From Alphaproteobacteria bacterium (GTDB taxonomy: Bacteria > Pseudomonadota > Alphaproteobacteria > Bin95): a DNA stretch of 64,000 nt. A program made the position numbers and the translations under genes. Shown here one piece after another: positions 12,908 through 17,589 of the stretch. The stretch is taken from positions 448,001 to 512,000 of the forward strand of contig OZ219785.1 of NCBI GenBank assembly GCA_964291285.2, in the 5' to 3' direction. Within the stretch, counting starts at the first letter, position 1, and each line of letters opens with the position of its first letter. A model generated the notes under the pieces. That model ran no database searches. It saw only the letters and a program-made list of their open reading frames with translations, and was not told the origin of the DNA.

Positions 12908-13881
12908 CGCCCGCCGCCCCGCTGCCCGTCACCGTGGTCGGCGGCTATCTGGGCGCCGGCAAGACGACGCTGGTCAACAGCCTGCTCCGGCAGGCGAACG
13001 GCCGGCGGCTCGCAATCATGGTGAACGAATTCGGCGCGCTTCCCATAGACGCGAGCCTCGTCGAGGCTGCGGACGAGAGGATCGTCAGCCTTGTCGGCGG
13101 CTGCGTCTGTTGCAGCTACGGGGAGGACCTCGTGTCCTCGCTCACCATGCTGGAGGCGCTGGAGCCGAGGCCCGACCATGTGCTGCTGGAGGCGAGCGGC
13201 GTCGCCTTCCCCGGCGCCATCGCCGGCACGGTCGGCCTGCTGCAGGGCTTCGCGCTCGACGGGGCGGTGGTGCTGGCCGACGCCGAGACCGTGCGCGAGC
13301 GCGCCGGTGACCGCTATCTCGGCAGCACCGTCCGCCGGCAGCTTGCCGAAGCCGACCTCATCCTGCTCAACAAGTGCGACCTCGCGGGCGATGCGGACGA
13401 AGTGGAAGCCTGGCTCGGCGGGACCGCGCCCGAGGCCCGGCTTCTGCGCACGGTGCGCTCCGAGGCCCCCATCGACATCGTGCTCGGCGCCTGGACCGGC
13501 CGCGCGCCCCTGCCGGCCGCCGGCGGGCCGTTCGACCACACGCACGGCTACGCAACCGCCGCGCTCGACCCGCCCGAGGGCGCCGAACCGGAGGCGCTCG
13601 CCCGCACCCTCGCCGACCCCGCCCACGCCCTGTTGCGCGCCAAGGGCTTCATACGCCGGCCCGGCGGCGGCATGGCCGCCATCCAGACCGTCGGCAGCCG
13701 CTGGGCCGTCTCCGACGCACCCGCAGACGCCCCCGCCGGCCTCGTCTGCATCGGCCTCGAAGAACAGACGGACTTCGCCGCCCTCCGGCGGGCGTTTGGC
13801 CTGGCTGCCCCTGATGCCGACGGCCGCCGGTCCGGGGCTTTGCGGACGAGCCCGGTTCAGCCCGGCCGGACCGGCTTCTGA
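12904..13881 (+). CDS. CobW/COG0523-family metallochaperone GTPase
   Basis: GYLGAGKTT, NEFG, GGCVCC, EASG, NKCD, LRAKG. Confidence 0.88.
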   Translation: MTPAAPLPVTVVGGYLGAGKTTLVNSLLRQANGRRLAIMVNEFGALPIDASLVEAADERIVSLVGGCVCCSYGEDLVSSLTMLEALEPRPDHVLLEASGVAFPGAIAGTVGLLQGFALDGAVVLADAETVRERAGDRYLGSTVRRQLAEADLILLNKCDLAGDADEVEAWLGGTAPEARLLRTVRSEAPIDIVLGAWTGRAPLPAAGGPFDHTHGYATAALDPPEGAEPEALARTLADPAHALLRAKGFIRRPGGGMAAIQTVGSRWAVSDAPADAPAGLVCIGLEEQTDFAALRRAFGLAAPDADGRRSGALRTSPVQPGRTGF

Positions 13882-14333
13882 TTTTCCGCCGGAACGGCTG
13901 CGCGGGCTCGTTCAGCGACCGGGGTAAACGCGGCGGGTGTTCTGCGCTGCGCATCGGACGGGTTGTTTCGCGCCGTATCGAGAGCCAGTTCCAGAAGACT
14001 GCGCAGCATCGCAAGGCGGGTTTCACCGGCATTTTCGCCGCAGGGCCGGTCTTCGAACAACTCGTCATGCGCGCGCACGGCCCGGACCGCCTTCGGAAAA
14101 AATACGAGCCCGGCCTCGGTTAACTGCGTGCGCCCGACCTGGCGGGGCTCGCGCGGCCAGGATGTTTCGAGCAATTTCCGCCCGACGGATTTTTCCACTG
14201 CGAGGACATGCTGAGTCACGCTCTGGCGCGGAATTCCCAAGCGCCGGACGGCTCTTGCGCTGCTTCTTTCCTCCACCATCGCCAGGAAAGAACAAAGATG
14301 TTTCATATTAATGTTCGGATTTATATATGACAT
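13857..14333 (-). CDS. LysR-type HTH protein lacking the effector-binding domain
   Basis: NMKHLCSFLAMVEERSSARAVRRLGIPRQSVTQHVLAVEKSVGRKLLE...TQLTEAG is a LysR wHTH followed by a short tail. Start at 14333 or 14306. Confidence 0.65.
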   Translation of the reverse strand: MSYINPNINMKHLCSFLAMVEERSSARAVRRLGIPRQSVTQHVLAVEKSVGRKLLETSWPREPRQVGRTQLTEAGLVFFPKAVRAVRAHDELFEDRPCGENAGETRLAMLRSLLELALDTARNNPSDAQRRTPAAFTPVAERARAAVPAENQKPVRPG

Positions 14334-14360
14334 AATCGCAGAATTGGCATTATGAGAAAT
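14333..14360 (+). other. dif-like (XerC/XerD-type) recombination site, left; contains the porin ATG
   Basis: TAATCGCAGAA-TTGGCA-TTATGAGAAAT has 11-6-11 architecture. Right arm is 9/11 to the E. coli XerD arm TTATGTTAAAT; left arm is 6/11 to the XerC arm. Confidence 0.7.
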
Positions 14361-15752
14361 TGCCTTTTTGCGACCGCAGGTCTGGCGTTCGTTAGCAGCC
14401 CCGCAATGGCGGCCGACATGCTGTCGGTCGGCGTTGGCGGCTACATGCAGCAATGGTTCGGCTACGCCGACCGCGACGACGGCGCCGAAGGCGGCTTCGA
14501 CACCCAGTCGGACAGCGAGGTCTATTTCTCGGGCTCGCTCGAGTCGGATTCGGGCCTCAAGTTCGGCGTGGACGTTCAGCTGGAGGGCAATAACGGCCCG
14601 AAGGAGTACACCCATCCGGCCACCGGCACGAACAACAATCCGACGGGCTCGACCAACATCGACGAGTCCTTCGCCTGGGTGAGCGGCGATTTCGGACGGC
14701 TTGAGATCGGCGCGCGCGACTCGATCCATGCCCGTACGCATGTCGGCATCAGGGATGTCGGCGTCGGCATCAGCGGCGGCGACACGCACAAATGGATTCC
14801 GGGCGCCTACCACGACACCAATGGCTGGTGGGTCGGCATGGGCGACAACAAGAACGTGATCTACATCTCGCCGCGCGTGAACGGCGTGCAGCTCGGCGTG
14901 TCCTACGGGCCGGACGTCGCCAACGAAAGCAAGTGGCCGGGCGCCCCGACCGGAAGCGAGGACTCCGTCTGGGCCGCCGGCCTCAACTTCCAGCAGGACA
15001 TCGGCGACACCAGCTTCAGCTTCTCGGTCGGGCATCGCAGCCGCGAGAACAACGCCGACGCCACGTTCGACCTCGACATGGACGATGACAACATGCTGGT
15101 GACGGCGGCCGACAGGTCGATGGACAACAAGATGAAGGGGCGCGACAGCGACACCTTCACCAATGTCGGCCTCGGCGTGGGCTTCGGCGCGTTCACCTTC
15201 AATGTCGCTTACGCCATGCGCGACAGGGGCCAGGTTTCCAGCGAATGCCGCTTCGTCGGCAGCGACGACAGTAACGACGCAGAAACACTGGATGCAGTGG
15301 ATGCCACGGCGACCGCAGCCGCAATACCGGCTGTGAATGAGGGCGACACGGTGGCCTGCGACCGGGCCGGCGTGGTTCTCATGGGTAGCATGGTGACCGC
15401 TGGCGACGGGACCCAGAGCGACGCCCCCACCACCGGCAACGGCGCCGTCAACGCCACCCACATGTTCGTGGATAACAAGAGCGGCGCGTGGGACACCTGG
15501 GGCGCCAGCGTCACCTATACGGACGGCCCGATGGCGCTGAGCCTCGCCCATATGCAACTGGACGCCGATGACAACACCGGGCGCACCGCGACCATGGTTT
15601 CGGCCGCCTACACGCTCGCGCCGGGTGTCGCCTGGAGGAGCTCTATCTTCCAGGTCGAGGACGACACGACCCAGAACCTGGGCGGCGAGGAAGCCAGGCA
15701 GGACGTGAACGAGGGCACGGCCTTCGTAACCGGCATCACGCTCAGCTTCTAG
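14352..15752 (+). CDS. Outer-membrane porin (alphaproteobacterial general porin type)
   Basis: Signal peptide ending AMA|A; 'SVGVGGYMQQWFG', 'DSEVYFSG..E.DSGLKFGV.VQLEG', 'IDES', 'FGRLEIG', 'YISPR', 'YTLAPGV'; terminal F. No RBS immediately upstream. Confidence 0.88.
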   Translation: MRNCLFATAGLAFVSSPAMAADMLSVGVGGYMQQWFGYADRDDGAEGGFDTQSDSEVYFSGSLESDSGLKFGVDVQLEGNNGPKEYTHPATGTNNNPTGSTNIDESFAWVSGDFGRLEIGARDSIHARTHVGIRDVGVGISGGDTHKWIPGAYHDTNGWWVGMGDNKNVIYISPRVNGVQLGVSYGPDVANESKWPGAPTGSEDSVWAAGLNFQQDIGDTSFSFSVGHRSRENNADATFDLDMDDDNMLVTAADRSMDNKMKGRDSDTFTNVGLGVGFGAFTFNVAYAMRDRGQVSSECRFVGSDDSNDAETLDAVDATATAAAIPAVNEGDTVACDRAGVVLMGSMVTAGDGTQSDAPTTGNGAVNATHMFVDNKSGAWDTWGASVTYTDGPMALSLAHMQLDADDNTGRTATMVSAAYTLAPGVAWRSSIFQVEDDTTQNLGGEEARQDVNEGTAFVTGITLSF

Positions 15753-15824
15753 GCCGGGCTACCTGAAAGGGCGGCGGCGGCGTCACGGGTCGTATCCCCG
15801 ACCCTCCTTCTGCTGCGGCCGTCC

Positions 15825-15856
15825 GGGGTGGCGTTGGGTTGCAACGACGCCACCCC
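15825..15856. terminator. GC-rich hairpin after the porin (probable terminator)
   Basis: GGGGTGGCGT...ACGCCACCCC perfect 10-bp stem. Confidence 0.55.
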
Positions 15857-15864
15857 ACCCTTGC

Positions 15865-15940
15865 TTAAATGCAATAATTTCCCATAATGCCAATTCTGCG
15901 ACCGGCGTTCGGAGGTGCTTTTCTCATTCCGAATTCCTCC
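15865..15940 (-). promoter_or_regulatory. RBS plus short leader ORF (MRKAPPNAGRRIGIMGNYCI*) reading through the right dif-like site
   Basis: GGAGG-N8-ATG (ATG at 15927). The frame runs through the site and matches the frame of the porin ATG in the equivalent position of the left site. Confidence 0.6.
15877..15904 (-). other. dif-like (XerC/XerD-type) recombination site, right, inverted relative to the left site
   Basis: Minus strand CGGTCGCAGAA-TTGGCA-TTATGGGAAAT. 25/26 identity with the left site over 14336-14361 vs 15876-15901, and an identical 6-bp core. Confidence 0.7.
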
Positions 15941-16023
15941 GGTAACAGCCGTCCGGGATTGGACAGCGCGGCCATCCTGCCCTGCCCGGCCGGCGGCTGC
16001 AATCCGCCCGATGCCGATTTTCG

Positions 16024-16051
16024 AGCCCTGTTGCGAAAATGCAACAGGGCT
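16024..16051. promoter_or_regulatory. Perfect palindrome, putative operator upstream of the leader ORF
   Basis: AGCCCTGTTGC-GAAAAT-GCAACAGGGCT (11-6-11). Confidence 0.5.
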
Positions 16052-16140
16052 GCGCCCGGACGCAGGCACGGGCCGGTCCCGCCGCAGCGGTGTAAGCCGC
16101 GCCTGCCGTTGGATGAGAAGCGCGGCATGAGCCCCGTGAA

Positions 16141-17589
16141 GATCGTGCCCCCGCGGGTGGTGTAAGAGCCTGGCGTCCGTAGCGGTGTCCGGCGGGTAGG
16201 GCCGGAACGCTCAGGCTGCCACGGCGGGCAACTTGACGGTTGTATTGTCGCTCACGGGAGCGATGGATTCCAGCGTCATGTATCTGGCTCTCTGGACTGC
16301 CCATTCATCGTTCTGCTCGAGCAGGATTGCGCCGATCAGCCGGGTGATGGCGTCCTCGTTGGGGAAGATGCCGACGGTGTTTGTGCGCCGCTTGATCTCG
16401 CCGTGGAGGCGTTCGAGCGGGTTTGTCGAGTGCAGCTTGGCGCGGTGCGCGGCCGGGAAGGTCATGTAGGCGAGAACATCGTGCTCGGCCTCGTCCATGA
16501 TGGCGGCGAGCTTTGGCGCCTTGGGCCTGAGCTGGTCGGCGACCTGGCGCCACTGGGCGGAGGCGCTGTCTGCATCCTCCTGGGCGAAGGCGGTAGTGAC
16601 GAAGGCGGAGACGACGCGCCGGCCCTGCTTGCCGGCATGGGCGAGCAGGTTGCGCATGAAGTGGACGCGGCATCTCTGCCAGGTGGCGCCGAAGATGCGG
16701 GTGGCGGCGGCCTTCAGGCCCTTGTGGTCGTCGGAGATCACCAGCTTGACGCCGCGCAGGCCGCGGCGGGCGAGCGAGCGCAGGAAGTCGGTCCAGAAGG
16801 TCTCGGCCTCGGACGCGCCGATCGCCATGCCGAGCACCTCGCGCCGGCCCTGATCGTTGACCGCCACCGCGATGGTGACCGCGACCGAGACGACGCGCCC
16901 GGCCTCGCGCATCTTCACATAGGTCGCGTCAAGCCAGAGATACGGCCAGTCGCCCTCCAGCGGCCGGTCGAGGAAGTCGCGGATCTTGTCGTCGATCTCG
17001 CCGCACAGCCGCGACACCTGGCTCTTGGAGATGCCCGACATGCCCATCGCCTGCACCAGGTCGTCCACCGAGCGGGTCGATACGCCCTTGATGTAGGCCT
17101 CCTGGATCACCGCCGTCAGCGCCTTCTCCGCCATCCGCCGCGGTTCAAGGAAGCCCGGGAAGTAGCTCCCCTTGCGCAGCTTCGGGATCTTCAGTTCGAC
17201 CGTGCCGGCCCGCGTCTCCCAGACCCGGTCCCGGTAGCCGTTGCGCTGCGTGATCCGGTCCGGCGAGCGCTCGCCGTGCGCGGCGCCCGCAAGGCCCTCA
17301 ACCTCAAGCGCCATCAGACGCGCGGCCGTGAACCCGATCATCTCGCGAAGCAGGTCGGCGTCGGAACTCTTCTCCAACAGCGCCCGCAGGGTCATCATGT
17401 CGGTGGTGGTCATCGTGGTACTCCTCCGGTCAGGTGGACTGTGACAGCCCAACCCTAACCGGCACCGCGATGGCCTCCGCTGTGGGTAAGTGGCCCGCCG
17501 CCTGACTCCAGACGGTCGCGGCGGCGGGCCACTTACCCACAGCTACCACCGGAAGCTTCAGCTCCTACACCACCCCTGGGGACACGACC
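16141..17589 (-). mobile_element. Complete IS256-family insertion sequence (1449 bp)
   Basis: Imperfect 29-bp IRs (GATCGTGCCCCCGCGGGTGGTGTAAGAGC / GGTCGTGTCCCCAGGGGTGGTGTAGGAGC). 8-bp TSD CCCGTGAA at 16133-16140 and 17590-17597. Confidence 0.93.
16211..17413 (-). CDS. IS256-family transposase
   Basis: [53 protein letters not shown]. Confidence 0.95.

Follow-up and report, generated by a model that had tools for sequence, protein, structure and literature searches.

Two short inverted sequences resembling dif, the recombination site of XerC and XerD, flank a porin gene in the genome of an alphaproteobacterium, and the start codon of the gene lies within one of them. This raises the question whether the gene can be inverted by Xer recombination and thereby be placed behind expression signals located outside of the flanked segment. 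The locus belongs to a stretch of 64,000 nucleotides, hereafter called the window (C1:448001-512000), of a genome of 6.1 Mb (G000; 5 contigs, 68% G+C), and positions given without a contig refer to this window. An original prediction from the sequence of the window had described the locus as an invertible ON/OFF switch for the porin, captured in the OFF state. Considering all results of the follow-up analysis, we lean moderately towards a chromosomal Xer-type invertible porin module, in which dif mimics are recombined by the host enzymes XerC and XerD and the porin gene is inverted onto a fixed expression platform.

The porin gene (14352..15752, plus strand; 466 aa; Porin_4, PF13609, E 4.1e-34) forms the body of the putative invertible segment. 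The proximal dif-like site (14333-14360, plus strand; TAATCGCAGAA-TTGGCA-TTATGAGAAAT) is composed of an XerC-like arm (14333-14343, TAATCGCAGAA), a core (14344-14349, TTGGCA) and an XerD-like arm (14350-14360, TTATGAGAAAT), and the distal site is present in inverted orientation (15877-15904, minus strand; CGGTCGCAGAA-TTGGCA-TTATGGGAAAT) with its XerD-like arm toward the porin. The two inverted 28-bp sites with identical cores thus read as originally described, and a repeat search agreed by detecting inverted repeat arms of 26 nt (14336-14361 and 15876-15901; 96% complementary) with a spacing of 1514 nt. Using a 25-mer at up to 3 mismatches as query, these two sites were the sole matches in the window, compared to a mean of 0.00 in 100 dinucleotide-preserving shuffles. 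As predicted, the porin ATG (14352) lies inside the left site, namely in the XerD-like arm, and the preceding TTGGCA is not Shine-Dalgarno (SD)-like. Compared with the XerD arm TTATGTTAAAT listed for Acinetobacter pdif sites in Table 1 of PMC13141974, the left arm is identical at 9/11 positions. In two sequencing runs of the same organism (X2 and X3), T is replaced by C at position 15875 beside the distal site, and several relatives likewise have C.

Outside of the distal site, a right flank (15905..16049, minus strand) is conserved with 82-87% identity across 8 further genomes of the genus; its homology stops just beyond a palindrome (CCCTGTTGC-N6-GCAACAGGG; 16026-16049, minus strand). We refer to this flank as the expression platform. 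On the minus strand, the palindrome is followed by a -35-like element GGATTGCA and, after a spacer of 17 nt, by a -10-like CAGGAT, and then by a 5′-untranslated region (UTR), an SD sequence and an ATG. The SD sequence GGAGG (15936..15940, minus strand) is located 8 nt before this ATG at 15927, which starts a leader open reading frame (ORF) of 20 aa (MRKAPPNAGRRIGIMGNYCI and a stop codon; 15865..15927, minus strand) crossing the distal site, as had been stated in the original prediction. With its first 14 codons, the leader ORF leads in frame to the ATG contained in the distal site. Since the offset of the ATG is the same in both sites and the leader comprises 14 codons, inversion at the cores would keep the reading frame.

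The same arrangement was found in all complete copies of the locus that we detected in the genus, 16 in total and described below as modules. An SD sequence (GGAGG, GGAAGG or AGGAG) is present 6-8 nt before an ATG in 16/16 distal flanks, and this ATG is located exactly 14 stop-free codons upstream of the site ATG and in frame with it, again in 16/16; an equivalent SD-ATG leader was detected in 0/16 proximal flanks. Past the site, the leader ORF continues for 4-8 codons only, with length and sequence unconserved. A promoter-like element, GGATTGC-N16-17-(C/T)AGGAT, precedes the leader ATG by 72-76 nt in 15/16 modules, the spacer varying freely and the hexamers being conserved; in the remaining one, of genome G014, CATTAT takes the place of (C/T)AGGAT. 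By anatomy, orientation would thus couple the porin to fixed expression signals located outside of the segment.

Twelve modules match the palindrome pattern CTGTTGC-N5-6-GCAACAG, and in these the palindrome lies between -116 and -128. It is present three times in the genome, and one copy is located between two divergent porin paralogues, A and B, which are not bracketed by sites, 160-174 nt before their starts. The count of three does not exceed simple controls (3 direct repeats, 1 everted), so the placement of the palindrome is telling, but its count is not. A homology between the region upstream of paralogue A and the right flank was considered and rejected (local alignment against shuffles, z 0.5), the palindrome alone being shared.

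The likeness of the sites to dif was analyzed with the genus's own dif. A whole-genome scan identified a single canonical dif in the genome (TTATCGCATAA-TGTATA-TTATGGGAAAT; C2:122984-123011), located at the cumulative GC-skew maximum of C2 (120 kb). Across the genus, dif has the sequence TCGCATAA-TGTATA-TTATGGGAAA(T) or a near variant, and one canonical copy is present in each of 17/17 genomes. The XerD-like arm of the distal site is identical to that of the genome dif (11/11) and the proximal one matches it at 10/11 positions. The inner XerC-like arm TCGCAGAA differs from TCGCATAA of dif at one position (7/8), and both module arms in genome G008 are TCGCATAA (8/8). In total, the proximal site deviates from the genome dif at 3/22 arm positions, and the exact 6-nt spacing is kept in 32/32 sites of the 16 modules. 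A strict arm pattern matched only four sites in the 6.1 Mb, i.e. dif, the two module sites and the start of porin paralogue A, and the reversed control gave 0. A wider pattern (TCGCA.AA-N6-TTATG..AAA, up to 1 mismatch) was then applied to the 17 genomes, where the non-dif matches are linked to porins save for a few unexamined one-mismatch matches and two solitary sites. Read backwards, this pattern gave 0 matches in each of the 17 genomes, and in two sister genera it was absent (0/10 each). The predicted dif-like character of the sites is thereby supported relative to the genus's own dif.

The two solitary sites are located in G007 (L070, C3:4496240; TCGCAGAA-CTGCGG-TTATGGGAAA) and G012 (L071, C5:5755; TCGCAGAA-TTGCGG-TAATGGGAAA). 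The 5.5-kb loci surrounding them gave no match to the porin, lysS (the small gene of the LysR type next to the porin) or the right flank, which means that some matches to the arm pattern other than dif are not linked to porins. Paralogue A, which together with paralogue B forms a divergent porin pair with the common start GGGGATTATGAGAAA and the palindrome between the two genes (G000:C1:176486-179000, L003), starts with a full dif-like site (ATGTCGCAGAA-CGGGGA-TTATGAGAAAT) that has no inverted partner. A porin pair of the same type is present on the metagenome contig L078.

A DNA search with 13700-16200 gave matches in 26/41 related genomes, including 16/16 other genomes of the genus. The 16 complete modules are distributed over 8 genomes, with four each in G008 and G009, three in G004, and one each in G000, G002, G014, G011 and on the contig L046 of a metagenome-assembled genome. 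Their order is lysS (minus strand), proximal site, porin (plus strand), hairpin region, inverted distal site and conserved flank of ~150 nt. This full architecture was seen in 13/16 modules; G011 lacks a lysS match, and G009:C10 and L046 lack a match to the palindrome pattern, the search for lysS and the flank having covered the modules other than that of L046. Identity of the modules of relatives is 64-82%, the flanks having diverged to 64-72%, and the porin ORF is intact in 16/16 (462-571 aa), which we count as a sign of selection in favour of the invertible module. All are solitary and located on contigs of chromosomal size, that of G008 being a single 3.9-Mb contig, and the plasmids of PLSDB gave no match. 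Parts of the stretch are also contained in sponge metagenome runs; five such runs have small shares, and the one examined (X4) contained only related, diverged pieces. The site-plus-flank pattern gave 0 matches in the metagenome scans.

Such conservation at orthologous and paralogous porins, of which the original prediction had named the orthologous ones as a check, bears on one alternative, namely that the repeat is a chance or neutral remnant, i.e. a duplicated 5′ end of the porin gene without present function. Much of the leader (TCGCA.A..GGGGATTATGAGAAA) recurs in porin paralogues without a partner site; the left site thus partly reflects what porin starts of this family have in common, as a remnant would lead one to expect. 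However, zero chance matches are expected and the reversed controls were empty, in 16 modules the conservation of both copies is sharply bordered, their cores co-vary, and the module identity of 64-82% contradicts very recent copying. We consider a neutral remnant highly improbable.

In genome G006, foreign DNA resembling an insertion sequence (IS) is inserted inside both module sites (L040, last ~150 nt of C104; L039, first ~131 nt of C144) and is joined there to the two outer flanks of the module, on the lysS side and on the platform side, with one junction after the core and TT and the other after the first core base, and both contigs end inside the insert. The insert carries a copy of TTGA..TGAGCCGCG at its ends, terminal at one and subterminal at the other. 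Presumably, it is an element of the IS1111/IS110 type that targets the dif-like site.

Partner sites within each module were also compared. As seen in the window, cores match: they are identical in 15/16 modules, and seven types were found (TTGGCA, TGGGCA, TCGGCA, TAGGCA, GGGGGA, TGGGGA and AGTGCA). The sole mismatch concerns G014 (TGGGCA vs TTGGCA). G009 has four modules with four cores and G004 three modules with three cores. When distal cores were shuffled among modules, 15 or more matches were obtained in 0/20000 trials. Because the modules are related to one another, the number of independent concerted core changes is ~5-6 and not 15. Partners differ at 1/96 core positions and at 4/128 positions of the inner XerC-like arm; for the XerD-like arm the value is 26/176, and for the outer three bases it is 36/48. 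The arms are constant across modules yet tolerant towards the partner, and the core is variable across modules yet matched to the partner. The same arm/core rule is reported for Xer sites of Acinetobacter (PMC13141974, PMC9947245).

Concerted change could also arise if the repeat acted on the level of RNA or of a regulator. The distal copy would then be transcribed from the platform as a mimic of the porin translation-initiation region, or it would act as an antisense RNA when the 3′ UTR is read through. Its targets for pairing would be the lysS leader or the porin mRNA; alternatively, it would sequester a shared binder, e.g. LysS, and covariation would reflect base pairing or this binder. RNA pairing also predicts compensatory change in an inverted repeat, and the promoter-like platform is directed into the distal copy. 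The lysS start is only 17-45 nt from the proximal site, so the lysS 5′ UTR probably contains the antisense of this site. In addition, the region downstream of the porin is strongly structured: the fold of 15750-15910 has -76.8 kcal/mol (z -3.88), and a G+C-rich hairpin of 12 bp (15825..15856, plus strand), conserved in relatives, lies between the porin stop and the distal site. However, this explanation leaves the dif likeness of arms and spacing unaccounted for, and neither an RNA duplex nor a protein operator distinguishes between XerD-like arm and core in the way the partner mismatches do. A search of Rfam gave no relevant match (the single weak one was CRISPR-DR20, E 0.08, inside the porin), and by eye the two arms share no LysR T-N11-A dyad. 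We therefore regard an RNA-level or regulator-level repeat as quite unlikely.

If inversion takes place in nature, the leader should be found fused to a porin. We searched 5.8 billion protein sequences using residues 1-140 of the window porin, residues 1-60 of P0030, the protein described here, and residues 1-120 of a porin from a module of the GGGGGA type as queries, and retrieved 249 family proteins in total. P0030 (548 aa, from ENA, encoded on an 86.9-kb contig) starts with MRKAIPDAGRRIGIMRNCLFATASLAFVSSPAMAADML. This start consists of MRKAIPDAGRRIGI and MRNCLFATASLAFVSSPAMA, i.e. the 14-residue leader of the G014 distal flank (14/14 identical) followed by a porin signal peptide of the module type. 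P0030 thus matches exactly the leader-porin junction that had been predicted from the anatomy of the window, and, judged from its sequence, it is the flipped junction in nature on the protein level. It is not an ORF-calling artefact of the usual orientation, since the upstream extension there reads ...ILHGRRMGIM (L008). The RNA-level explanation does not account for P0030.

Among the 17 genomes of the genus, P0030 matches the module porin of G014 best, with 77% identity starting at residue 9, and none of its matches in these genomes begins at residue 1. Over the mature part, P0030 is most similar (81%) to a porin whose signal peptide is not of the module type, from which we conclude that the porin family is mosaic. 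A search for related loci with P0030 yielded two, neither of which is a module: the divergent porin pair of L078 and a porin start within a dif-like site in L079 (metagenome contig LXNI01022366.1, 85-108). The latter site, TCGCATAA-CGTGTA-TTATGAGAAA, has a perfect dif-type XerC arm; the contig is short.

From these observations, the following mechanism can be proposed. The two inverted dif mimics bracket the porin with their XerD-like arms inward, and host XerC/XerD or close paralogues would recombine them via the identical 6-nt cores, by which the 1.5-kb segment would be inverted; for inverted sites, inversion would be the only productive outcome. In the present state, the platform would read the 20-aa ORF that ends just inside the segment, at the hairpin region, leaving the porin uncoupled. 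The porin itself would start at an ATG without SD sequence, 45 nt from the divergent lysS. After inversion, promoter, SD sequence and 14-codon leader would head the porin in frame (MRKAPPNAGRRIGI-MRNCLF...), and the signal peptide would thereby gain, in the leader, an extended n-region with positive charge. Once the segment is inverted, lysS would be located downstream on the same strand and may contribute to the switch. The palindrome may represent the operator of the platform. Inversion of this kind may recur in the strain studied here.

Several results weigh against this invertible module. One concerns orientation, as all 16 complete modules have the same one. Twelve right-flank copies have a readable inner side; 11 of them adjoin the 3′ UTR side and one (G006) foreign DNA, so 0/12 adjoin the porin start, and 14 genome-contig loci agree. 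Logan contigs from three runs of the organism are collinear with the window (X1 13700-16168, X2 13700-16169, X3 14118-16065). No strand-changing joint at the sites was found in the contigs of the three runs, the six joints present being skips attributable to paralogues. Collinear contigs are weak evidence and exclude only a large flipped fraction, because contigs drop rare variants. The opposite orientation expected by the original prediction was thus seen neither in the contigs of the three runs nor in any genome module (0/16), and the present orientation is the standard state in every assembly seen rather than a chance snapshot of an OFF state. From the sequence, we infer that expression in this orientation is off or low. 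Here too, there are counterpoints: the lack of an SD sequence applies to this window, but not to the modules in general, as the sister cores GGGGGA and TGGGGA are SD-like, and non-SD initiation is common in high-G+C Alphaproteobacteria.

Further points of this kind concern the platform, the cores and P0030. A consensus sigma-70 scan called 0 promoters in 13800-16250, so the platform promoter is a candidate based on conservation only. In G008, AGTGCA is the core of all four modules, which means that cores are not always private to a module. The fused leader is present in 1/249 family proteins, corresponding to 1/34 with a module-type signal peptide, and the others start with MRN..., MGIMRN... 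or a lysS-side extension. P0030, which is known at the protein level, could also represent a stable arrangement that was never inverted.

These results raise the question whether the sites are real Xer sites without a programmed switch, either as the footprint of an ancient inversion or due to Xer reshuffling among paralogous porin loci. In this case, occasional abortive strand exchange together with gene conversion would maintain the matched cores, and the small ORF would have its own role, e.g. as a leader peptide or small protein. The uniform orientation of the modules and the absence of an inverted contig in the three runs agree with this. The four modules of G008 point in the same direction. 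Their identity of 93-100% begins at the 3′ end of lysS, spans the proximal site and reaches into the signal peptide; it resumes ~10 nt after the porin stop and extends through the distal site to the palindrome. For the mature porin parts, identity to the window porin is only 30-75%. This suggests exchange of porin bodies between frames or homogenization of frames, in either case not bounded by the sites. The mosaic nature of P0030, with its mature part resembling a non-module porin, fits as well. On the other hand, a relic would not keep SD sequence, ATG and 14-codon frame in 16/16 modules at a flank identity of 64-72%. A conserved small protein is disfavoured by the unconserved tail of the small ORF, the several concerted core changes that arose independently need repeated interaction of the sites, and P0030 shows the platform heading a porin gene in nature. 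On balance, we consider Xer sites without a programmed switch unlikely.

The near-identical frames in G008 (L057, L058, L059 and L005) comprise lysS, sites, signal peptide, a 190-nt 3′ UTR and platform around divergent mature porins. We also considered a mobile cassette of the pdif type and rejected it, as homology in these four modules runs through both sites; this likewise does not favour the invertible module.

Which recombinase could act on the sites was analyzed using an XerD model. Xer-like genes are present in the genome, which we count in favour of the invertible module. However, the two best matches, with 296.8 and 218.9 bits, do not reach the TIGR02225 cut-off (329.6 bits). In agreement with the original prediction that no recombinase is encoded nearby, the model gave no tyrosine-recombinase match within the window, and no serine recombinase was found on contig C1. 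A second difficulty is the distance to the terminus. FtsK-activated Xer recombination is confined to the terminus. The modules of G008 are located at 0.55, 1.42, 1.89 and 3.07 Mb and dif at 2.70 Mb, i.e. 0.4-2.1 Mb apart, and Xer action on them would call for a pathway independent of FtsK or for an accessory factor. In total, the genome contains 104 matches to the XerD model, many of them repeated copies, and clusters of three adjacent genes with such matches were found, e.g. at C3:749177-751885 and C5:443768-446510. The genome is unusually rich in mobile elements.

Weighing both sides, the interpretation as a switch in the original prediction is partly supported, with conserved dif-like sites, platform and P0030 in its favour and the lack of any flipped orientation in the assemblies against it.

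Other parts of the locus were annotated as well. The gene lysS (13857..14306, minus strand; 149 aa) is a small gene of the LysR type that encodes only a helix-turn-helix part (Pfam HTH_1, E 2.8e-09, residues 2-66), a match to the substrate-binding domain being absent. It is divergent from the porin, with an ATG-ATG distance of 45 nt. Using tblastn, homologues with 62-65% identity were found at the proximal site in the four modules of G008 and beside the porin of G011 L010, and none in the G011 module L062. DNA matches spanning the LysR part into the porin were obtained for G009, G004, G014 and G002. On the other side, an IS of the IS256/Mutator family (16141..17452 and beyond, minus strand; transposase 16211-17452, Pfam Transposase_mut E 1.6e-121) begins ~95 nt past the platform palindrome; it does not belong to the module, and the other modules lack it at this position. 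Contig depth increases ~60-fold from 16141-16157 onward, from which we conclude that this IS is highly multi-copy in the genome.

The genome contains further porin-related sequences. Two porin genes with identical 50-nt leaders are located in inverted orientation ~28 kb apart (C4:371365, plus strand; C4:399296, minus strand) and may represent a large inverted duplication. A porin-like N-terminal fragment with 45-50% identity to the window porin is present at 11 loci of G000 (e.g. C1:60006, C1:800710, C3:404279 and C5:310407) with nearly identical upstream sequence, and it is probably carried by a repeated element.

Invertible modules that control surface structures are known from other bacteria. 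In fimS/FimBE, Hin/hix and the invertons of Bacteroides and Clostridioides, inversion usually flips a promoter, and a dedicated recombinase is encoded nearby or acts in trans. The porin module shares with them short inverted repeats, the coupling of a gene to expression signals by orientation and the idea of bet-hedging over a surface structure. It differs in that inversion would turn the complete gene while promoter and start stay in place, that the sites are dif mimics and that no invertase is encoded nearby; moreover, both orientations were not seen here in one population. In Mycoplasma, the vpma and vsp loci contain the gene of the recombinase Xer1, and the sites are not copies of dif. Common to these loci and the porin module would be inversions by Xer-family tyrosine recombinases that switch surface proteins, but in the porin module the sites are copies of dif and the candidate recombinases are the housekeeping ones. 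Integrative mobile elements exploiting Xer (IMEX), such as the CTX and TLC phages and the gonococcal island, integrate and excise at dif via directly repeated sites. In such elements, which are the subject of PMC9226527 and PMC5357621, sites imitating dif recruit host XerC/XerD for functions beyond dimer resolution. Unlike in IMEX, the two sites of the porin module are inverted and far from dif, so that inversion would be the only productive outcome.

The closest resemblance in site anatomy is to the dif (pdif) modules of Acinetobacter, as far as the compared portions of the respective papers describe them. These also have inversely oriented 28-bp sites of the XerC/XerD type with 11-6-11 geometry (PMC13141974, PMC9947245), and in the so-called D module the XerD arms are internal (PMC13141974) as in the porin module. 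The rule of identical spacers, the reliance on host XerCD and the lack of a recombinase within the module are further common features, and chromosomal islands of dif modules are also part of this literature (PMC13141974, PMC9947245, PMC11705084, PMC12907356). Within the same portions, Acinetobacter modules are described as forming arrays on Rep_3/OrfX plasmids in which C and D modules alternate, whereas the porin modules are solitary and chromosomal and gave no plasmid match. In contrast to these dif modules, homology does not end at the sites and the porin is not a free cassette. Finally, the start codon of the porin is part of the site and a fixed platform of promoter, SD sequence and ATG would be fused to the gene by inversion, an expression logic that the texts compared do not report for dif modules. 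No paper on a porin switch based on Xer or dif was found in a literature search with supplements and subscription journals outside its scope.

The set of 16 modules with matched cores and tolerant arms provides comparative data on the positions of Xer sites that need identity between partners. If inversion is confirmed, the module would be a programmed expression switch made from dif mimics that is either driven by the universal XerCD system or borrowed from it. Xer biology would then extend past dimer resolution, IMEX integration and the shuffling of plasmid modules, and invertons could escape methods that rely on a neighboring invertase. For the sponge-associated genus studied here, we tentatively suggest, at somewhat less than even chances, that XerCD serves as an engine of phase variation by which one to at least four porins per genome could each be flipped onto a platform with no dedicated invertase. 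In this scenario, for which it is relevant that cores are private to a module in several genomes, subpopulations would differ in their porins and might thus escape phages or alter host recognition, with lysS as a possible accessory or feedback component. If true, this would provide a testable account of surface variation in symbionts with many porin paralogues.

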